Below are positions 12,993 through 28,964 of a DNA stretch of 32,000 bases, piece by piece. Source of the stretch: Dickeya solani IPO 2222 (lineage in GTDB: Bacteria > Pseudomonadota > Gammaproteobacteria > Enterobacterales > Enterobacteriaceae); the NCBI RefSeq assembly GCF_001644705.1, contig NZ_CP015137.1:3810001-3842000 (forward strand), in the 5' to 3' direction. The notes below the pieces were generated by a model. It ran no database searches. It had not been told where the DNA came from and saw only the letters and a program-made list of their open reading frames with translations. The position numbers and the translations under genes were made by a program. Numbering within the stretch: the stretch's first letter is position 1; each line of letters begins with the position of its first letter.

Positions 12993-14147
12993 CTAAATAG
13001 CTTCTCATATTATCGCTCCACTTTAGCCAGCCCATGTTGATTGCCGGCGAACGGTGAAGCCACGTTCATAAATTGTTTTACCCGTTCCAGTAATTGCCAC
13101 ATATATCGATTCTGGTGGTTTCTCGTTATGGTTTCATGTAACGACAGCCACAGCCGTTCTATCGGATTCAGCCACGGCGAATACGTTGGTAGGAACAGCA
13201 ATCGGAATTTCGTGTTTTTCTCCAGCCAGCGCTCCACTTTTCGGCTTTTATGGATGATGTAGTTATCCGCTACCAGTGTGATAGTTTTCGCCCGCCGGTA
13301 TGTGCGCCGCAACGTTTCTAACAAATTGATAAATAAATCAGAACACTTGCTGCTGCCACTAACGTAGTGGATTCGCCCCGTACCCGAATGTAACGCGCCC
13401 GCCAGATAATGTTTTTGGTTCTGTCCCGGCGTGGCAATGCGTTTCTGATGCCCTTTTGGCATCCAGTCCGCGCCAATTTTCGGGTTCAGGTCGATATCAA
13501 CTTCATCCTGATAAAACACGGGATGATTCGTTGACTCCGGAGACAGCGCCTGCTCAATGGCGAGCCGTTTTTCCTCATAGTGTTGATCTTTGATTTTCAA
13601 CGTGGGCGCGGCTCTGCGCCAGACCATACCTACCTGTTTCAGATATCGGTGCAAGGTAGCGGTGAAGCCTCAGGTCGAAAAGTTGGTTGACGATACGGGT
13701 CGGTAACTCCGTGCTCCAACGAGAGCGCAGCCAGCCAAAATCCTGCGGAGAACGTTGTACCAGAAGCGGTAGGACATGCAGGATATCCGTGACGGGCCAG
13801 CGTGGAACACGTCCAGCCCTGAGACTTTTTAGTCCTTCAACATCATGTCAAGTAAACCAATTTATCCATCTTCCAACAGATGAACGAGCGGCACAAAGTA
13901 TTCTGGCGACCTCAGTGACCGTCCTTCCCCGATGCAGCATCAGTATAGCAATGAGGCGTCTGGCATGATTTTTATCGCGGTCTGTTGGGCTTCTTTACGC
14001 ATCAGTTGTCGTTCTTCATCAGGAATTGCTGCTATGATCGGCATCGCTTAGTCCGGCTGGTGGTTTGTTCTTTTTGGCGATTGATCAGATCGCACAATTC
14101 GGACTGAGTTCCCTTCAAGTGATCTACTATTTGGCGAAGTTATTTAG
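12993..14147 (-). mobile_element. IS630-family insertion sequence (decayed)
   Basis: Terminal inverted repeats CTAAATAGCTTC (12993-13004) and GAAGTTATTTAG (14136-14147) match 11/12. The element is ~1.15 kb and its flanking TA is compatible with an IS630 TA target duplication. It encloses an IS630-like transposase reading frame. Confidence 0.8.
13010..14044 (-). pseudogene. IS630-family DDE transposase, disrupted
   Basis: The C-terminal 214 aa (13010..13654) are intact and IS630-like (PVFYQDEVDIDLNPKIGADW...VADNYIIHKS). The N-terminus from ATG 14044 (MPIIAAIPDEERQLMRKEAQQT) is frameshifted. There is an in-frame TGA in WINWFT*HDVEGLK and a 14-nt near-duplication around 13655-13685. Confidence 0.75.
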
Positions 14148-14179
14148 AGATAAAATTAACATTATTAATTTTATCTCTA
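14146..14179 (-). terminator. Perfect AT-rich palindrome downstream of the ABC gene (possible operon terminator)
   Basis: AGAGATAAAATTAA-catta-TTAATTTTATCTCT; the arms reach 15 bp if the flanking T/A is counted. It lies 13 nt after the stop codon. There is no clear T-run, so terminator function is uncertain. Confidence 0.35.
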
Positions 14180-14191
14180 GTCTCTTTTCTT

Positions 14192-15997
14192 TTAGATGGC
14201 AACCTGTGCATCTCCGGAGCCGGAGTTGTACTGACTTCGCTGCAAATTCAGCAGGGCATAATATTCACCCCGCTTTATCTCCAGTTCAGCCGGTGTTCCA
14301 CTTTCAACAATTTCGCCTTGTTTTAATACAATTATCCGCGTGGAGTTTTTTACGGCACTCAGACGGTGTGTGACCATTACGGATGTTCTTCCCCTGACAA
14401 GTTCAGAAAAGCGAGCAAATAACTCGGTTTCCACTCGCGGATCCATTGCGCTGGTTGGTTCATCAAGTATGATTAATTCCCCGTCAGAAAACAGAGCACG
14501 GGCCAGTGCAAGGCGCTGCCACTGACCACCAGAAAGTTCTGTACCGGAATATTCTTTCCCGAGGAAACTGGTTGCATCATGGGGGATTTCCAGCGGGAAC
14601 TGAGCCTGTTCACAAGTCTGTAAAAAGCGTTGTTGCTCGACCGTACTCATGTTGTTCCTGAACGTGACATTCTCCTGCACCGTCATATTGTAATGGCCAA
14701 AATCTTGAAAAATAGCACTAAGGCAACGATGCCATGTCCTTATATCAATGCTGGCAACATCAATCCCGTTCCAGGTAATACGGCCGGATGTGGGGTGGTA
14801 CAAACGGCAGAGCAGCTTAATCAGTGTTGATTTACCTGCGCCATTTTCACCAACAATAGAAAGCTGGTCACCAGCATGGATCGTTAGATTAATATTGCTG
14901 AGAACGTTGTGGCCGTTCTCATAAGAAAAGGAAACATTTTCAAACTTGATTTCATCTAGAGGAGGTATCTCAGAGAGGGAATAGCTGTTCTCCTGCGCAA
15001 CGCTTTCAAGTTCTCTCAGTCGAGCAAAGAAACTAAAACAGACGCCGATATTAGCAAAGGAATACACCATCCACTGGCAAGATAAACCAAAGAAAGAAAT
15101 TGATTGTATGGTGCCCAGTAACCCTCCGACAGAAATTCTGCCTGCCTGAAGATATTCAACAAACCAGTACATAACACCTAGGATGGATGCCAGGTATAAA
15201 AGATTCCATGGCTGGGGTCTGAGTAATTGTTTGCGTCTGACCTGATTTAATTCATTTTCCAGCTCTTCGAAAGCCTGCGTGTGTTTGGTGAAAAAAAATG
15301 ATGCTGAACGGAAAATTCTGACCTCTTTAGCTAGCTTCACATCAAGTAGAACACCCAGATAATACCTTATCAGGCGAGCGGCGGTACCTTTTCCCAGCAG
15401 AGCTCGAAAAATATCGATTTGTGAAAGTGCAACAGTAAAAGTGATCGGGATAAGCGGCAGAAGAAATGCCAGAGGAAACCACCAGACAACTGAAGCCAGT
15501 ACCAGAGACAAAGACAACAGCGTTAGTATGCCGCGAAATATATCAACAAGATTAACCAGAAGGTTCAGGGGACGGTGAGCTGCTTCTCTTGAAAGAACCT
15601 CAAGATTATCGTGTATGTCCGGTTTCTCGATAATTTTCAGGTCTTCAATGCGGCAGGCTGCCTCCATAATAGTTCGTTGTGTCAGATAGGTGGCATGCTG
15701 ATTCAGTATACTTTGTAGAGTACTGATAATGGGAGCCAGCACACCGGGGAAGACAAATGTCAATGCCCAGAATACTGCCACGGTCATCAGACCTGAATGA
15801 TCCGGGCTACTGATGATATTTCCGAGCCGGATGCTTGCCATCACACTCGTGGTAGGCAATAACCCCTGCAGGGCAATGAGGATGATAAACAGCGTGGATA
15901 GCCATGGTGATTTCCTGAATAGCAATGAAAGTGAATAGGTCACCAGATTCAGTTTTTCTTTTACCTTCTGCATCAGAAAAGCTCCATTGTCAGGCAT
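14192..15997 (-). CDS. ABC exporter, fused permease/ATPase (type I exporter), no peptidase domain
   Basis: 601-aa ORF with six predicted N-terminal TM helices. It has Walker A GENGAGKST, the signature LSGGQWQR and Walker B LIILDEPTSAMD. An alternative start at ATG 15973 overlaps the upstream stop codon (TGATG) and has GGAG 8 nt upstream. Confidence 0.85.
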   Translation of the reverse strand: MPDNGAFLMQKVKEKLNLVTYSLSLLFRKSPWLSTLFIILIALQGLLPTTSVMASIRLGNIISSPDHSGLMTVAVFWALTFVFPGVLAPIISTLQSILNQHATYLTQRTIMEAACRIEDLKIIEKPDIHDNLEVLSREAAHRPLNLLVNLVDIFRGILTLLSLSLVLASVVWWFPLAFLLPLIPITFTVALSQIDIFRALLGKGTAARLIRYYLGVLLDVKLAKEVRIFRSASFFFTKHTQAFEELENELNQVRRKQLLRPQPWNLLYLASILGVMYWFVEYLQAGRISVGGLLGTIQSISFFGLSCQWMVYSFANIGVCFSFFARLRELESVAQENSYSLSEIPPLDEIKFENVSFSYENGHNVLSNINLTIHAGDQLSIVGENGAGKSTLIKLLCRLYHPTSGRITWNGIDVASIDIRTWHRCLSAIFQDFGHYNMTVQENVTFRNNMSTVEQQRFLQTCEQAQFPLEIPHDATSFLGKEYSGTELSGGQWQRLALARALFSDGELIILDEPTSAMDPRVETELFARFSELVRGRTSVMVTHRLSAVKNSTRIIVLKQGEIVESGTPAELEIKRGEYYALLNLQRSQYNSGSGDAQVAI

Positions 15998-16827
15998 TTC
16001 CCGTTCGGGAAAATGACAAATTCATCAAAATGTCGAGGAGTATTCAGAATTAGCTCCATCGCATCCCTGGTTTCCGTTCTGTAGAGGGAGGATATCATTT
16101 TTACACGGTATGTCTGGTTACCCATTTTTTTGCACGCATGCCGTACAGAGTTTATTGACAGTGAATGTCCATCTGGTGTTGCCAGAAATGTCATGTTTTC
16201 AGAAAATACGCCGTATGATGTGATATCGATGCTTCCATGAAATTTGTTTTCGAGTGTCTGACAGAGCGAAGGGTAATGGAGCCATGAAGTGTGCGTTGCA
16301 TGAAAGTTGTGGCAGATGACAAAAATTAATTCATAACCAAGCTGGATAGCTAACCCGATCTTCTCCGCCATAGCGGTCTCACGCTGTTCCGGCGTTGCTC
16401 CAGTCATACTTAATGTACTTTGTCGATCAAACTCCAGCAAACTGATCAACAGACGCTGCTCAGCAAGAGGAACTAAGCGAATACTTTTAATATAATTTTC
16501 ATGAAGTGTTGTGGATAAAGGTAAATCAATCCCCGCAATAACACATGTTGCAGGTAAAGCATGGAGGAAAGTTGCAAACTCCTCAGAACGCATCCACCAG
16601 TACGCTGACGATGTAAGGTACGACATGTCCCCGGTATTTACTTTTCTAAAGCGTCTGAGTGTAAACACAATCAGGTCTATAGTCGGACATTCGACAAGAA
16701 CTATGCTACGTAACTCCCTTCGTAGCTTATGTATAAAGGCATTCCGAAACGCCCATGACTCGTCTGAACCATGGCTGTTCTGACCAATAAAATAAATATG
16801 CTTTTTAGCCTGCTTTGTATACAACAT
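15973..16827 (-). CDS. Erythromycin-esterase / ChaN (TIKI-TraB)-like superfamily protein, function unknown
   Basis: 284-aa ORF. The N-terminal YFIGQNSHGSDESWAFRNAFIHKL resembles the Ere-family G-E-x-x-H-G-x-x-E motif, and the later VICHNFHATH resembles the AHNxH motif. The start overlaps the upstream gene by 23 nt. The family assignment is from memory only. Confidence 0.5.
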   Translation of the reverse strand: MLYTKQAKKHIYFIGQNSHGSDESWAFRNAFIHKLRRELRSIVLVECPTIDLIVFTLRRFRKVNTGDMSYLTSSAYWWMRSEEFATFLHALPATCVIAGIDLPLSTTLHENYIKSIRLVPLAEQRLLISLLEFDRQSTLSMTGATPEQRETAMAEKIGLAIQLGYELIFVICHNFHATHTSWLHYPSLCQTLENKFHGSIDITSYGVFSENMTFLATPDGHSLSINSVRHACKKMGNQTYRVKMISSLYRTETRDAMELILNTPRHFDEFVIFPNGKCLTMELF

Positions 16828-18331
16828 TCATACTCCGCGCTATAAGGTGATGTTGTCTTAATAAATACCGTTCATCACGAGAAAAATAGCTGTCAATCTG
16901 TTCAAGAGGGGTGGTAGGGAAAAAGTCAGGGAATTCGTTTTTCTCTCCATCAAATAAACTGCGTGAATTAATAAAAAGATGAAACAGAGGAATGTCATAG
17001 TTTGCAAGGCAGGATACTTCATATAATATAAGACTCTGAAACTTGGGGTGTGATCCGGGGTAGAGTAAAAATTCATCAATTAACGCTGGTAGCTTTTTTT
17101 TGATATTTATGCTTGTCTCTGGATGAATTATTTTATTAATGATAAGTAGATAATAAGCTGTTGTGCGAACGAGGTAACGTGGTTTAATTTCTGAGTGGTT
17201 TTTCAGGAGGGAAATTATTCTCGCATGGTTTCTTTTTAATTTGAGAAACGTGTCGGTATATCCCTCTGTTACATCAGAAATATACTTCTTAGACTTCACC
17301 GGAAGACCGTGGTAGTGTGGGAAGTTTTGTGTCCGTTTGGCAAATCCTCGTTCATATCGAACCTGAATATTTTCAGTCGCATCATGGATGGCATGAGGAT
17401 AGGTAAAAGACTGAAATATATTGGTGACAGCGGTAAGTGCTGATGTATGCCCTAGTCCATTCTTGACAACATCCGGGCTCTGAAGCAATCCGCTTTGATA
17501 TATAGAACGTTCAAATTCCGGGGCGTCATCAAAAAAATACTGGAAGCTGGTTTCGGGATCTATCAGCCATACAGTGTCAGCATCTACAATGAAGTTATCA
17601 AAATGACAGTCATTGATATTCAGAAGATCGGCTAGAGCTAGAATGTTACCGTATCTTCTGTAAACTTTGGCTGCATCCACGCTCAAATCCAAGCCCCTGT
17701 TTTCGACAAATTCCTGCCACAAATGTGTTTTAAGACTAAGTGTCACAGGGCAGACATTAGCTAACCCGATAATGTTGCAGATCTCATTAAGTACATTTTC
17801 AATGCCAGAATCTCTGGGTTTGTAAATAAGCTTGAAGCTTCCGAGGGCTAGTATTACTGGTTGTTGTCCATTGTCATGCCGGTCACCAGCAGCTAAAGAC
17901 AGCTTTCCCGGAGTTGAAGAAAGTGGTGGGCAATTATAAATATCAATAAGTAACTTATGTTCCTCTATTAAGCGGATAAGAAAATTATTTATGTTTGCGA
18001 TAGTGGTATCACAGATATGTTCTGCCAGTTGACTAATATATTGATTGTGGTTTCTTAGCCCTGGCAGCCAGGAATTATCATCATTCTTGAAATAGGAAGT
18101 ATATCTATCTGAATGTGAATCGGGTTGTGTTTTCAGCCATTCATCGAATTTAACAACAAAATCAGGAAGGTGGATTTGATCAAGTGATTCAGAGATACTC
18201 AATGACACATCTGTAAAATCGAGGTGATGCAGACCATAATCAGTCAGCATCTGTTGCATCTTTTTATTAAAATTTCTTATATATGGGAAATAGAGGTAAG
18301 CACGATATGGTTCTGACAGTATGTAGCGCAT
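16805..18331 (-). CDS. Stand-alone LanM-type (DUF4135) lanthipeptide dehydratase/kinase domain protein, no LanC cyclase domain
   Basis: 508-aa ORF carrying the LanM N-domain motifs in order. These are GDRHDNGQ (149-156), KLIYKPRD (167-174), DCHFDN (241-246, DxHxxN), LIDPET (256-261), SGLLQSP (280-286), RYLVRTTAYY (385-394, the Arg/Thr elimination motif) and DIPLF (446-450). The protein ends ~60 aa later, with no WCxG or CHG Zn-ligand motifs. Confidence 0.75.
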   Translation of the reverse strand: MRYILSEPYRAYLYFPYIRNFNKKMQQMLTDYGLHHLDFTDVSLSISESLDQIHLPDFVVKFDEWLKTQPDSHSDRYTSYFKNDDNSWLPGLRNHNQYISQLAEHICDTTIANINNFLIRLIEEHKLLIDIYNCPPLSSTPGKLSLAAGDRHDNGQQPVILALGSFKLIYKPRDSGIENVLNEICNIIGLANVCPVTLSLKTHLWQEFVENRGLDLSVDAAKVYRRYGNILALADLLNINDCHFDNFIVDADTVWLIDPETSFQYFFDDAPEFERSIYQSGLLQSPDVVKNGLGHTSALTAVTNIFQSFTYPHAIHDATENIQVRYERGFAKRTQNFPHYHGLPVKSKKYISDVTEGYTDTFLKLKRNHARIISLLKNHSEIKPRYLVRTTAYYLLIINKIIHPETSINIKKKLPALIDEFLLYPGSHPKFQSLILYEVSCLANYDIPLFHLFINSRSLFDGEKNEFPDFFPTTPLEQIDSYFSRDERYLLRQHHLIARSMNVVYKAG

Positions 18332-18351: not shown

Positions 18352-18382
18352 AAAAAAGGGCAGCCGATGGCCGCCCTTTTTT
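18352..18382 (-). terminator. Intra-operon hairpin/attenuator between the precursor and modification genes
   Basis: The minus strand reads GGGCGGC-catcg-GCUGCCC (7 bp, with one G-U pair that would be an A-C mismatch on the plus strand), followed by TTTTTT. It starts 2 nt after the peptide stop codon and ends 20 nt before the next ATG. Confidence 0.6.
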
Positions 18383-18383
18383 A

Positions 18384-18563
18384 TCAATTAAAGAATTCTT
18401 CAGTAATTTCCTGAAGCTCTTTGATTAGTACTTCTTCAGAGGAGATATTAATACCACTACCTCCGCAGTCGCAGGTACCACTGGCGCAGTCAACACCACT
18501 ATTAGCCATATAACCGCGAATATCGGAGATCTTACTCGGTGCTACTTCGATAATACGTTCCAT
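18384..18563 (-). CDS. Candidate RiPP precursor peptide (59 aa)
   Basis: Hand translation gives MERIIEVAPSKISDIRGYMANSGVDCASGTCDCGGSGINISSEEVLIKELQEITEEFFN. The Shine-Dalgarno GAGGT ends 6 nt before the ATG. It is the first gene of the operon and is followed by a hairpin. It is below the 60-aa cutoff of the supplied ORF track. Confidence 0.7.
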   Translation of the reverse strand: MERIIEVAPSKISDIRGYMANSGVDCASGTCDCGGSGINISSEEVLIKELQEITEEFFN

Positions 18564-19373
18564 TTGTTACCTCGGATTTTGTCAATTACTACGTAAGTGG
18601 ATAAACAATGTCTTCGCGAGATACAACTTTTGTGTACACAGAGAAAGTATAAAATGGGAATAATAGATTAAAATGTGATCTGTCTCTGATAAATAATCTG
18701 ATGGTAATTTGATTTTTTATTTTCCAGTGATTTGAGTTTTTTTGTTCTTATGTATAGTTTCTTTTTCTATGATCTCTAATGTTTTTTCTTTATGTGCAAA
18801 CAATATGCATTTTTATTATTCATATTTTGTTTCATGTTTTTACCCCTATTGAGGATGTGAAATTATGGTAATTAAGTGAAAGATTAAAAATCTAATGGAG
18901 GGACATTAAGCGATTATTTCTTGCACGGACAGTAACATATATCAGATTTGGAAATTTGTTCTTCAGAGCAAGTAAATAAATTTACTTATGGTAATAATTT
19001 ATTTTGATGAAAGTTATTTATTGTTAACGATAAACTATCGAGCAGATTGATTTATGTAGCGAACATTCTGGATGTACTAATGTCTCTGATAAACTACAGT
19101 TTTTTCAATGTGTTCGCAAGAGTTATACAGAAATGTTCGAGCTTTAACTGAATATTAATGTGTGCTTAATAAAATTATAATGAATTTTTAGTTCGCAATA
19201 ATGTTTGATTCATTATCAGGGGAAAACCGTTAATTGGCATAATTACTGTATCTGGTTTCAAGTCAGCTTCACGGCTGTTCGGTGTTCACTTTGCTTCAGC
19301 CATGGCGTATAGCATTGCTAACTAAAAGAATAGCACTTGTACTGACGGGGACTACTTCAAGGTTATCTATTAA

Positions 19374-20033
19374 TCAATCTACTGAAGACTCAGGCAACAT
19401 GATGGCTATTTTCTCTACTCTGGGTATTAACGAAGGATACATCCGCTTACCGGTCACGACACCTACCAAGTTCAATGCAGCGCTGTTTTTCACCCGTCCC
19501 TTCTGTAATGCGTAACGCATGATGTTGCACAGGTGCTGCCGGGTACGGGCTGCCACTTCCAGTAAACCTTTTTTCTCAATCCCTTTCAGCAGGTCGATGA
19601 AATGACGGGGTTTTAGTTCCGTGACGGGCAGGTGCCCGATAACCGGGAAAATATGGTTGTTCATGCTGGCAAGCAGACGGGCGGCGTGGTTCTCTGACCA
19701 TGTCCGGTTGCTCTTGTGCCAGTCCAGCGCTACGTCCCTGAATGATTTTTCTGGTGAGCGGGGCGCTTTTTCTGCCGCCCGTTGGTGCGCGGGGTTGATA
19801 TTCTGCGCCAGCAGTTTACGGATGCCGTCACGCTGTTGACGCGCATCGGCCAGCGATACATCGGGGTAGGTACCTAAACCGAGGCGGGATTCTTTTCTAT
19901 TGATACGATATTTGAGATACCAGAGACGTGAACCGCCTGGATTAACTAAAAGGCACAGACCGTGAGAATCGGAAACTTTGTAGGGTTTTGCAGATGGTTT
20001 TAAGTTGCGGATTTTTGAGTCGTTAAGAGACAT
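19374..20033 (-). pseudogene. P4-type tyrosine integrase, 3'-truncated (N-terminal ~200 aa only)
   Basis: MSLNDSKIRNLKPSAKPYKVSDSHGLCLLVNPGGSRLWYLKYR...GTYPDVSLADARQQRD is the classic P4/CP4-57 Int arm-binding and SAM-like N-terminus. The catalytic R-K-H-R-H-Y domain (~220 aa) is absent. Similarity ends near 19400, where AT-rich DNA begins. Confidence 0.8.
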
Positions 20034-20206: not shown

Positions 20207-20282
20207 TGGCTCCTCTGACTGGACTCGAACCAGTGACATACGGATTAACAGTCCGCCGTTCTACCGACTGAACTACAGAGGA
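20207..20282 (-). tRNA. tRNA-Asn (anticodon GUU)
   Basis: The minus strand reads TCCTCTGTAGTTCAGTCGGTAGAACGGCGGACTGTTAATCCGTATGTCACTGGTTCGAGTCCAGTCAGAGGAGCCA. This matches my recollection of E. coli tRNA-Asn, including the encoded CCA. Confidence 0.95.
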
Positions 20283-20480: not shown

Positions 20481-23609
<3,129 letters not shown>

Positions 23610-23660
23610 TTATTGGCTGAAGGTGATTGGCTGAAAACGCCTGACAGGCAGATGAACAGA

Positions 23661-23681
23661 TTTTGTTATCCGCTCACAATT
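23661..23681 (-). promoter_or_regulatory. lac operator (O1-like)
   Basis: The minus strand reads AATTGTGAGCGGATAACAAAA, a 19/21 match to E. coli lacO1 AATTGTGAGCGGATAACAATT. It lies 67-87 nt upstream of the lacZ ATG. Confidence 0.8.
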
Positions 23682-23773
23682 CTATTGGCAGGATCGCGGC
23701 TTGCCGGGTGTGAGTAAAGCGCAAGGGCGCCGGAAAGTGGTGTCGATCACAAAACCAGCGTCGGGGAAATGGG

Positions 23774-24847
23774 TTAGCGTTGTAATTGCCGCGCCAGCGT
23801 AATCAGCTGTTGTGCGACATCCTGCGGCGATAAGGTGTAGGGCTGCCAGGCAGCGGTGGTCTGACGGGGGATCAGCGTAGTTTTCAGCCGCAGCGGGGCG
23901 AGGGTGTGCGGGTGTTGCAGGCACTCCAGCAGCCGGTTGACGCTTTCCCGGCCCAGTTGCCGGAAGTCCTGGCGGATGGTGGTCAACGGCGGCTGGAAAT
24001 AGGCGCTGTCGCGGGTGTCGTCAAAACCGATCACCGAGATCTGCTCCGGTACGCGCAGGCCATATTCGTGGATGGCTCGTAGCACGCCCAGCGCCATTTG
24101 GTCGTTGGCGACGGCAATGGCGGTCGGACGAACCGAGTTCGCCAGCAGCAGATGCGCCTGCTGATAACCGGCGCTGGCGCTCCAGTCTCCTTCCGCAGTC
24201 GCGCAGGGCGTCAGCAGGTGGGCGGCCAGCGCCTGTTGCCAGCCTTCGTAACGCAGCCGGGCGGACACTGAGCTTTGCGGGCCGGCAAGCAATGCGATCC
24301 GGCGATGGCCCAGCGCCACCAGATGATCGATAGCCAGCCTGGTGCCCTGATGCGGGTCGAATATCACGCTCGGCAGGTTGGCGGTGGGGGCGGTGTCGAG
24401 AAACAGCGCCGGCGTGGTGGCGCACAACTGGTGGATTTGCTCCGCCGCCGCCTGTTCCAGCGGCACGTTGATTATCACGCCGTCCACCCGTTGCGCCAGC
24501 AGTTCATTGACGGCGCGCTGAACGTCATTGCCGTCGGCGGCGCGTAACATGGAGATCACCACGTTAAATCCCAGTTCGCTGGCGGTGGTTTTAATGGCGG
24601 CGGCAATTTGGGAGGGGGCATGCAGCGACAGGTCGATGGTCGCCAGACCGATGGTGGTGGCGCTGCGGCGCGCCAGTTGCTGGGCTACCCGGTTGGGGAT
24701 GTAGTGAAGTGCGGTCATCGCCTGCTCCACTTTTTCCCGGGTGCGGTCTGAGACATGAGGCGCCTGATTCAGCACTCGGGAGACGGTCTGGTACGACACA
24801 CCGGCGTAAGCCGCCACGTCATTGAGCGTTACTGGTTTCGCTTTCAT
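23774..24847 (-). CDS. lacI: Lactose operon repressor
   Basis: 357-aa ORF. MKAKPVTLNDVAAYAGVSYQTVSRVLNQAPHVSDRTREKVEQAM..YIPNRVAQQLA is near-identical in pattern to the E. coli LacI headpiece, and the remainder is colinear. Confidence 0.9.
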   Translation of the reverse strand: MKAKPVTLNDVAAYAGVSYQTVSRVLNQAPHVSDRTREKVEQAMTALHYIPNRVAQQLARRSATTIGLATIDLSLHAPSQIAAAIKTTASELGFNVVISMLRAADGNDVQRAVNELLAQRVDGVIINVPLEQAAAEQIHQLCATTPALFLDTAPTANLPSVIFDPHQGTRLAIDHLVALGHRRIALLAGPQSSVSARLRYEGWQQALAAHLLTPCATAEGDWSASAGYQQAHLLLANSVRPTAIAVANDQMALGVLRAIHEYGLRVPEQISVIGFDDTRDSAYFQPPLTTIRQDFRQLGRESVNRLLECLQHPHTLAPLRLKTTLIPRQTTAAWQPYTLSPQDVAQQLITLARQLQR

Positions 24848-28050: not shown

Positions 28051-28446
28051 ATTAACCTCATGTTGATGAATGTATTCAGACAACACACAGTGTTATTGCA
28101 GCGTAGCGGTCAGAGATGTCGTGAGACATACGCAGGCCGATACCCTGCTTTGTTTGTGGGGTGTTGTGTCTGCCGCGCGAAATATTACAACGAAATCGGA
28201 TTTTTGCCCTTTTTTTCTGCTGATAAAATGAAATGCATCACTGAATGAGGCCATAAATGTGCTATTTCCCTGCTGTTCATGGCTAAAAGCCTTGAAAAAA
28301 TCAGGTGTATTTATTTATATAACATTTTACTTATCAATAACTTGTGTATTTATTTCTGTGCGTCGGCAGGCGGATTTTGCGTTAATCATAACTTTTTCTT
28401 ATATCTCCACCTGAGTCAGCAATAAATCCAATAATCGTCGCTGAAC

Positions 28447-28467
28447 CATTTTTATCCGCTCACTATT
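28447..28467 (-). promoter_or_regulatory. Second lac-operator-like sequence
   Basis: The minus strand reads AATAGTGAGCGGATAAAAATG, an 18/21 match to E. coli lacO1. It shares the exact 12-mer TTATCCGCTCAC with the operator at 23661-23681. It sits in the AT-rich intergenic region between the DAACS gene and fhlA. Confidence 0.3.
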
Positions 28468-28964
28468 TTATTATTGGTTGATGACATGAGTGATTAATAA
28501 ACAAGAATTACCCTTCTATTCATGAAAATATAATCTGGCGTAATACAGGAAAGCCCGTATCGCAATTGAATAAAAACAACAGTAATTTTAATGACCTGCT
28601 TTAATTGCATCGGCAGGGCCATAAATGTTGTTTTCTTTTTTCGGGATGTAATTGAAGTGTTGCATTTTAGTTTTAATATGACGATATCTTAATCAATCCA
28701 GCGTGATGGCGACGCGCCAAGACAATATTGCCTCAACAAGAATCGGTAATATCACCTGTATAAAATACAGCCACAATAGTAAACGGTTCTTATTATTATC
28801 TGCCGCGACAGGTGGTAATCGCTCATCGGGTAACCGCTTGTCGCCGGCGTGCTCCGGTTTAGTACGATTCAGATCAAGCTATTGGTGAGGCGACGTGTCA
28901 TTTCCGTAGTGAAGCTCTTACACTATTTCCCCACACTATCTATGGAAATTGGATTACGGTGGTT

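Follow-up and report, generated by a model that had tools for sequence, protein, structure and literature searches.

A free-standing LanM-type dehydratase in a putative microcin-like peptide operon of Dickeya solani

Lanthipeptide biosynthesis is defined by the pairing of a dehydratase with a LanC-type cyclase. In a stretch of 32,000 nucleotides (nt) from the potato pathogen Dickeya solani IPO 2222 (contig NZ_CP015137.1, positions 3,810,001 to 3,842,000 of the forward strand; termed the window in the following), the open reading frame (ORF) 16805-18331 had been described in an earlier note, made from the DNA letters alone, as a LanM dehydratase domain without a cyclase domain that keeps both the kinase and the elimination motifs. 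This ORF is a complete free-standing LanM dehydration domain of 508 amino acids (aa). It belongs to a large and old lineage of short enzymes, spanning Enterobacterales, a metagenome-assembled genome (MAG) of the Verrucomicrobiota and a MAG of the Chlamydiae, which has kept the full dehydration chemistry and a Ser/Thr-Cys core in its precursors and carries no cyclase in any of the loci examined. We consider it somewhat more probable than not that the ORF is part of a horizontally mobile, microcin-like operon whose peptide would be dehydrated, closed into thioether rings independently of LanC, trimmed, and exported. Four minus-strand genes form this unit, which is composed as follows:

18384..18563, minus strand: precursor peptide gene, 59 aa, MERIIEVAPSKISDIRGYMANSGVDCASGTCDCGGSGINISSEEVLIKELQEITEEFFN
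18352..18376, minus strand: intrinsic terminator/attenuator between the precursor and dehydratase genes, read directly from the sequence
16805..18331, minus strand: cyclase-less LanM-type dehydratase, 508 aa, DUF4135 only (Pfam, match to CylM and LicM2, AlphaFold (AF2) model with Foldseek)
15973..16827, minus strand: hydrolase with predicted erythromycin-esterase/Tiki-superfamily fold, 284 aa (AF2 model with Foldseek)
14192..15997, minus strand: ATP-binding cassette (ABC) exporter, 601 aa, a half-transporter with fused membrane domain and ATPase (Pfam ABC_tran, E 6.5e-35)

The dehydratase is identical to a 508-aa dehydratase annotated in D. solani. Pfam assigns its residues 100-451 to DUF4135, the LanM dehydration domain (E 4.9e-69), and a Pfam scan gave no match to PF05147 (LANC_like); the NCBIfam LanM model TIGR03897 is covered only at model positions 4-519 of 932, with 206.9 bits against a cut-off of 304. 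Every LanM motif quoted in the earlier note was found again in its place, i.e. GDRHDNGQ at 149-156, YKPR at 170-173, DCHFDN at 241-246, IDPET at 257-261, RYLVRTTAYY at 385-394, and DIPLF at 446-450, and the C-terminus lies 58 aa past DIPLF, where about 60 had been given. In sequence comparisons the protein matched CylM (E 3e-17; aligned to CylM residues 176-593) and LicM2 (E 1.5e-16), and an AF2 model built on 19 homologues, with a predicted local distance difference test (pLDDT) of 84, was matched by Foldseek to the N-terminal halves of LicM2 (E 8e-22; template modelling score relative to the query (TMq) 0.74) and of CylM (E 3e-20; TMq 0.71). The kinase residues of CylM are K274, D347, H349, N352, and D364, and its phosphate-elimination residues are D252, H254, R506, and T512 (PMC4550811). 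The CylM alignment places them at K171, D241, H243, N246, and D258 and at D150, H152, R385, and T391 of the dehydratase, respectively, with D150 and H152 serving as P-loop and elimination residues. All nine are invariant in the 19-sequence family alignment, and the catalytic residues are kept in the wider clade of short DUF4135 proteins as well. The check proposed earlier, alignment with CylM combined with structure prediction and mapping of the active site, thus leaves the residue assignments standing and bears out the claim that both kinase and elimination functions are retained.

CylM consists of a dehydration domain (residues 4-624) and a cyclase domain (residues 641-992), and the excised fragment 1-625 efficiently dehydrates its substrate (PMC4550811). 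As residue 476 of the dehydratase corresponds to CylM residue 593 in the alignment, the 508-aa protein ends at about CylM residue 625, that is at the boundary between dehydration and cyclase domains. Homology, residue conservation, and the activity of the excised CylM domain give strong support to ATP-dependent phosphorylation and elimination, so that dehydration is a well-supported prediction for the 508-aa enzyme. The only stretch of low confidence in the AF2 model (pLDDT < 50), residues 291-333, belongs to the best-conserved parts of the family (G292, G294, H295, T296, A298, T300, A301, F306, S308, P312, A314, D317) and, judged from the model, may be a substrate-binding loop that becomes ordered only upon peptide binding.

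The short length of the protein is a conserved trait. About 20 homologues from Enterobacterales (Dickeya, Pectobacterium, Citrobacter, Serratia, Pantoea, Buttiauxella, Enterobacter, Erwinia, and Salmonella) have 497-527 aa and contain DUF4135 only, at identities down to 39%. When 1.84 billion representative proteins were searched with a profile, a much larger set of DUF4135-only proteins of 497-560 aa was obtained, the majority of which ranked higher than the first full-length LanM; most of these are metagenomic and one is that of the Verrucomicrobiota MAG. The scan of metagenomes for relatives used an 11-sequence alignment. In a tree of 159 sequences, calculated by the neighbour-joining distance method with midpoint rooting from an alignment to a hidden Markov model (HMM) built from short members, 74 of the 89 short DUF4135 proteins, including the dehydratase, fall into one clade without any full-length LanM, and the short lineage comprises at least 74 clusters at 50% identity. 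The length kept in the homologues and the purity of this clade agree with the earlier statement that the stop codon is not a truncation artefact.

Several DUF4135 proteins without LanC are located outside the 74-member clade (L048 4530-6491 and P0108, P0127, P0134, P0137, P0188, and P0191). They are of intermediate length (600-700 aa) and may represent independent cyclase-less lineages; no recognisable precursor of the C-x-S/T-G-T type was found near L048. A further deviating protein is P0019 of Dickeya dadantii (315 aa), which shares 96% identity with the ~190 N-terminal residues of the dehydratase and 98% identity with about 45% of the 284-aa hydrolase. From its sequence, it appears to derive from an in-frame deletion that fused the two genes in a decayed copy of the operon, present in some strains of D. 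dadantii.

To search for a separate cyclase, an HMM of the LanC domain was built from 60 full-length relatives; it recognises the cyclase part of most long LanM ORFs. With this model, neither the 26 short-clade loci, inspected with flanks of 5-8 kb where the contig allowed, nor any part of the 32-kb window yielded a LanC-like ORF. A LanC gene adjacent to the dehydratase in intact versions of the island, which had been named as a sign that a deletion had occurred here, was therefore not encountered in the 26 loci. The next gene, said before to overlap by 23 nt and to encode an unrelated fold, does so: the predicted fold is erythromycin-esterase-like and not that of LanC.

The peptide encoded upstream of the dehydratase gene carries the second line of evidence. 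Its gene has a GAGG ribosome-binding site 6 nt upstream, and the 59 residues are arranged as a leader-like N-terminus, a core S22-x3-C26-A-S28-G-T30-C31(-D-C33), a Gly-rich linker, and an acidic/aromatic tail. Within the first 32 codons, compared for 9 loci, 11, 9, and 28 alignment columns are variable at codon positions 1, 2, and 3, respectively, a pattern which indicates purifying selection on the coding sequence and hence a truly coding gene. Homologous peptides adjoin the DUF4135 gene in all inspected loci. Those of Enterobacterales follow the consensus MERI[IV]EV..KIxEIRGYMANS[G/S]xDC[A/G]SGTC[D/E], with a variable Gly-rich linker and the tail ..LIKELEEVSxxFF[S/N] after the core. Small ORFs beside distant short-clade enzymes are recognisably homologous to the 59-aa precursor and have a SLxELEKLKFDW-type leader (within which the metagenomic representatives show an ELxxL-type motif), the core KTT[K/R]xC-A-T-G-T-C, and a tail ending in [R/K]YG[S/V]LR. 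Pfam and NCBIfam models gave no match with the precursors; a precursor profile found 35 clusters in the protein database, all of them annotated as 'hypothetical' and one originating from the Chlamydiae MAG.

The precursors of several phyla share the core [S/T]xxxC-[A/G]-[S/T]-G-T-C. In 37 distinct precursors, numbered from the invariant Cys as position 0 (C26 in the 59-aa precursor; 37/37), position -4 is S/T in 37/37 (S22), +2 is S/T in 36/37 (S28), +3 is Gly in 37/37 (G29), +4 is Thr in 34/37 (T30), and +5 is Cys in 33/37 (C31). The sole precursor without S/T at +2 is also without Cys at +5. The earlier note had counted three Cys in the peptide: C26, C31, and C33 are all present, but conservation is restricted to C26 and C31. 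A Ser/Thr-to-Cys distance of i+4 followed by one of i+3 corresponds in direction and size to canonical lanthionine rings, such as rings A and B of nisin, in which the same spacings occur, and the third T-x-x-C of some precursors (SGTCDC) resembles the TATCHC of nisin. Unlike in nisin, there is one extra residue between the two putative rings, and the enzymology is class II-like and not of the LanB/LanC type.

The third gene product, the 284-aa hydrolase, has no match in Pfam or NCBIfam and no signal peptide. Searches of the PDB by sequence, with a single sequence or a profile, returned nothing meaningful, and only the fold search gave matches. With an AF2 model of high quality (pLDDT 90; predicted template modelling score (pTM) 0.90), the top matches of Foldseek were the Ere-like proteins 2rad/2qgm/3b55 of B. 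cereus (E ~1e-11, TMq 0.65-0.69), and EreC (6xcs/6xcq) was matched with E ~1e-9. In homologues of the hydrolase, Pfam matches below threshold were obtained for Erythro_esteras (8/20, around the CHNFHA motif) and for ChaN/Tiki (two, N-terminal); the gathering score of PF05139 was not reached (best homologue E 2e-4; rescans 11-15 bits versus 26.4). The 23 homologues have the same distribution as the DUF4135 family. Invariant residues of the hydrolase are H19 (in GQNSHG), E46, C47, R149, E150, C172, H173, H176 (the last three in CHNFHA), C189, and H266. The catalytic set of EreC comprises H50, E78, and H289, with E47 orienting H50 (PMC7979712). H19, E46 (27 residues further on), and H173/H176 of the hydrolase resemble this set in a mapping made by motif and spacing only. 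The protein has the predicted fold of the Ere and Tiki-ChaN enzymes (EreC 6XCQ/6XCS; Bcr135 2RAD/3B55), and its succession of GxxxHG, a Glu ~27 residues later, and HNxH resembles E47/H50, E78, and H289 of EreC, but it is about 120 residues shorter, gives no Pfam match that reaches the cut-off, has a Gln in place of the His-orienting Glu and the additional invariant residues C47, C172, and C189, and belongs to a peptide operon rather than to a macrolide resistance context. Proteins like Ere and Tiki are on record from other loci for modified peptides, with no role assigned to them (PMC8939145). As the exporter is devoid of a peptidase domain, the 284-aa protein, taken here as a cytoplasmic hydrolase, would most likely act as leader peptidase; protection of the producer would be the alternative role.

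In the exporter, no C39 peptidase domain was detected by Pfam. Its best NCBIfam matches are exporter families, all far under their cut-offs, and its relatives in the PDB are ABCB-type exporters. In every Enterobacterales locus, and in several metagenomic ones, a similar exporter of ~590 aa is encoded after the enzyme genes, and it is the only recurrent partner across the clade besides precursor and enzyme (a fused ABC protein of ~590-605 aa in L016, L017, L021, L022, and L024; an ABC-2 pair in L013), whereas the hydrolase partner is confined to the Enterobacterales branch. The cassettes of Pantoea and Serratia contain a fifth gene (L008 12177-12872; L011 5053-5715), which overlaps the end of the exporter gene and whose DsbA-like product (220-231 aa) has a signal peptide and a CPHC motif. 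This gene hints at at least one cysteine of the product being handled in the periplasm. It is absent in Dickeya, Erwinia E602, Buttiauxella, Enterobacter, and all metagenomic loci examined, and no DsbA remnant was found downstream of the exporter gene in the window.

Other branches have other neighbours. A GNAT acetyltransferase or a sulfotransferase is encoded in several metagenomic loci (L019 6652-8971, the contig of P0058, and L022 8244-9002), and in two contigs a radical S-adenosylmethionine (SAM) gene is close to the pair of GNAT and short dehydratase genes, which suggests extra tailoring or immunity functions in these branches. In L016 (contig JAKOXD010000476.1), a 77-aa precursor, a 531-aa enzyme, an ABC exporter, and a 312-aa protein of unknown type are encoded together; due to the neighbouring ERF recombinase, HNH, ParA/ParB, IstB-like, and PemK genes, this cassette is probably located on a plasmid or prophage.

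The genes of the unit in the window are tightly packed: those for hydrolase and dehydratase overlap by 23 nt in another frame, and those for hydrolase and ABC exporter by 25 nt. The same gene order with overlaps is found in Erwinia oleae, Dryocola, Erwinia sp. E602, Buttiauxella, Pantoea, Enterobacter bugandensis, Serratia, and one metagenome contig. Precursor and dehydratase genes are separated by a hairpin with the stem GGGCGGCC...GGCTGCCC (18376-18358) followed by TTTTTT (18357-18352), for which RNAfold calculated -23 kcal/mol. It was not picked up by a simple terminator scan. A GC-rich hairpin with a T-run is present at this position in 9/9 loci, with hairpin sequences that differ between them, and a hairpin so placed is the way in which structural peptides are usually expressed in excess of their enzymes. 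The 810 bp upstream of the precursor gene (18564-19373; about 34% GC) contain no ORF over 40 aa and presumably hold the promoter and the regulatory region of the operon; a promoter scan yielded 12 sites against 14.9 expected.

From these data, we infer the following pathway. The terminator would be leaky and would cause the precursor to be transcribed in excess over the enzymes. The 508-aa enzyme, by homology, would phosphorylate the core residues S22, S28, and T30 at the expense of ATP and would eliminate the phosphate in the same active site, yielding dehydroalanine (Dha) and dehydrobutyrine (Dhb). Next, the cysteines would attack the dehydro residues without help from a LanC zinc cyclase, S22 being joined to C26 (i+4) and S28 to C31 (i+3), so that two small thioether rings of canonical size would arise either spontaneously or templated by the dehydratase. 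The cytoplasmic esterase/Tiki-fold hydrolase would trim the peptide, most likely by removing the leader, and the ABC exporter would secrete the product and probably protect the producer. In Pantoea and Serratia, any remaining thiol may be handled by the periplasmic DsbA-like oxidoreductase. Ring closure without LanC is suggested by the conserved spacing pattern. We favour LanC-independent Michael addition because the donor-acceptor pattern is nearly universal, because maturation would proceed in the reducing cytoplasm beside reactive dehydro residues, and because the clade has no other conserved component able to act on the cysteines. A broader view, which we put forward as a tentative and less probable one, is that the whole clade makes LanC-free thioether peptides, the present product being a lanthipeptide microcin, with rings like A and B of nisin, from Gram-negative bacteria of enteric and plant-pathogenic kinds; closure might then be spontaneous but sequence-programmed, or be brought about by the dehydratase or, in Enterobacterales, by the Cys/His-rich esterase-fold protein.

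Some observations weigh against the proposed pathway. The DsbA-like gene of some relatives would fit a disulfide between C26 and C31 at least as well as thioethers, and three precursors with S/T at +2 have no Cys at +5. With respect to the trimming step, Q16 of the hydrolase, three residues before H19, stands where EreC has a Glu (E47), and Ere enzymes are esterases, not peptidases. The strongest competitor, to which we nevertheless assign a rather low probability, is an electrophilic dehydropeptide that retains Dha and Dhb and acquires a C26-C31 disulfide in the periplasm, and which would not be a lanthipeptide. It draws on the translationally coupled DsbA-like gene of Pantoea and Serratia with its signal peptide and CPHC motif, on the fact that exactly two Cys are near-universal, and on the lack of a cyclase of known type at any examined locus. 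It is difficult to reconcile with the limited occurrence of this gene, which is missing from the enterobacterial and metagenomic loci for which its absence is noted above and has left no trace in the window. Moreover, free thiols near Dha or Dhb tend to add spontaneously in the reducing cytoplasm, and the invariant S/T at -4 and the co-occurrence of S/T at +2 with Cys at +5 are better explained by donor-acceptor pairs.

The remaining alternatives concern the enzyme. Cyclase-free DUF4135-type dehydratases are known from polytheonamide biosynthesis, where free-standing PoyF acts together with a separate hydrolase, a protease (PMC9505594), and the pairing of dehydratase and hydrolase in the operon and the invariant S/T four residues ahead of the Cys at position 0 would be compatible with a similar course, in which a S/T at the leader-core junction is dehydrated, cleavage directly before it exposes an N-terminus that tautomerises and is hydrolysed to an alpha-keto acyl cap, and the cysteines have some other role. 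We regard this as improbable. PoyF converts one Thr of a long NHLP/proteusin precursor to an alpha-keto N-cap in the company of many tailoring enzymes, whereas here a 59-aa, Cys-containing precursor of an uncurated family, without a Pfam or NCBIfam match to an NHLP/Nif11-type leader, is encoded in a four-gene operon with otherwise only hydrolase and exporter. In addition, the hydrolase is limited to the Enterobacterales branch, but the S/T and Cys pattern extends over the clade, and the invariant Cys and Gly would be left unexplained. Even less credible, and rejected by us in view of the invariant elimination residues, is an enzyme that functions solely as kinase and leaves a phosphopeptide, as does EmbM. 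This enzyme is homologous to the CylM dehydration domain, has no cyclase, and belongs to the minimal precursor and enzyme cluster of phospeptin; its product retains the phosphates (PMC9259500; PMC9505594). EmbM has lost the elimination residues, leaves phospho-Thr, and acts on a precursor without Cys (PMC9505594); in the present family D150, H152, R385, and T391 are invariant and the precursor Cys are conserved. Finally, the dehydratase could be the functionless remnant of a lanM gene whose cyclase half was deleted on the island. The degraded edges of the island (a truncated integrase and an IS630 fragment) would be in accord with such decay, as would the 315-aa protein of D. dadantii, in which the N-terminus of the enzyme and the C-terminus of the hydrolase are fused as in a deletion derivative. 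We give this reading hardly any probability and have rejected it: the length of 497-527 aa is retained down to 39% identity, the 74 short proteins form a clade free of long LanM, the catalytic residues do not vary, purifying selection acts on the peptide, and the overlaps between the genes are kept in relatives.

Compared with LanM enzymes of known structure (CylM, PDB 5DZT; LicM2, PDB 6ST5), the system in the window has the lipid-kinase-like N-terminal dehydration domain with all kinase and elimination residues and a precursor with an ELxxL-like leader and a Ser/Thr and Cys core. It differs in that the C-terminal LanC-like zinc cyclase domain (Cys-Cys-His) is lacking and none is encoded nearby, in that the precursor has a conserved C-terminal tail as well, and in that the 508-aa enzyme lacks roughly 100 residues of the N-terminal capping helices present in CylM. 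CcaM/LanMbC of dehydrazole biosynthesis is likewise a divergent DUF4135 dehydratase, and the CcaM product contains dehydro amino acids and no lanthionine; CcaM is, however, leader-independent, requires a zinc-less class III-type cyclase domain for activity and depends on YcaO-made azoles, and neither such a domain nor YcaO is encoded in the operon. A cyclase-less architecture alone is not unprecedented, given PoyF as dehydratase and EmbM as kinase only; the earlier reading of the ORF as a cyclase-less LanM dehydratase is supported by length, clade, and residues. Databases list the short enzymes as 'type 2 lanthipeptide synthetase LanM', a name that overstates them, since they fail the second defining feature of that family, the LanC domain.

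In its layout the operon equals a cluster for a class I (post-translationally modified) microcin: a small precursor and its maturation enzymes are encoded together with a dedicated ABC exporter, on mobile Enterobacterales DNA. The product is most likely a microcin-like modified peptide. Clusters for microcin J25 have the same arrangement, namely a precursor of ~58 aa, an ATP-dependent enzyme of ~500 aa, a smaller hydrolase, and a peptidase-less ABC exporter of ~580-600 aa, and they too occur on mobile Enterobacterales DNA; they differ by their asparagine-synthetase-like and transglutaminase-like enzymes and their lasso product. The known Pantoea microcin MccEh252 was considered as a relative and dismissed, as it is pantocin A and unrelated. 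In the open full-text literature (subscription-only papers being outside reach) no description of the precursor family, the short clade, or the esterase-fold partner was found. Walker et al. (2020) took LanC-like proteins as the starting point of their lanthipeptide mining (PMC7268733), and pipelines of this kind miss the short dehydratase family entirely. With the present system one could test directly whether defined thioether rings form without LanC or, if not, what other role the conserved dehydro/cysteine motif has. The system would add a new class of modified microcins to Dickeya, Pectobacterium, Pantoea, Serratia, Enterobacter, and Salmonella, and would give an enzyme of the erythromycin-esterase fold its first role in peptide maturation or immunity.

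The operon is located on a genomic island. From 14 to 19 kb of the window the GC content is 34-45%, as compared to 55-63% in the flanks. The island edges are marked by the following features:

20207-20282, minus strand: tRNA-Asn, one island edge (ARAGORN)
19374-20033, minus strand: truncated integrase, 219 aa, at the same edge (Pfam Arm-DNA-bind_3 and Phage_int_M)
13010..13654, minus strand: IS630-family DDE transposase fragment, 214 aa, at the other edge (Pfam DDE_3, E 5.5e-30)

The integrase fragment comprises arm-binding and central parts only, without a catalytic domain according to Pfam, and no direct repeat of the tRNA-Asn 3' end that could serve as attachment site exists elsewhere in the window; on these grounds, the island seems to be an old one that is no longer mobile. 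Bases 14000-14150 share 84-87% identity with IS630 copies of E. coli. The IS630 element just past the exporter gene may have removed whatever lay after it. Where its remains lie in the window, Pantoea and Serratia carry the DsbA-like gene. The Pantoea cassette is found on a contig with genes for IncFII RepA and TraI. In 5,426 complete E. coli genomes the operon was absent by a near-identity search, in which only the IS630 edge was matched, and tblastn found no match of the enzyme among PLSDB plasmids at E 1e-20. PADLOC and PHROGs contained no match for enzyme, hydrolase, and peptide, and matched the ABC exporter solely via generic ATPase similarity.

Beyond the tRNA-Asn gene, the region 20481-24847 (60-63% GC) encodes a lacZ-type beta-galactosidase (1037 aa) and a LacI-family repressor (357 aa) and is ordinary chromosomal context. 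A second patch of low GC content (about 40%) is formed by an intergenic gap of ~870 bp at 28087-28958, which is flanked by an ORF for a membrane transporter-like protein (441 aa) and one for a sigma-54-type activator-like protein (727 aa).

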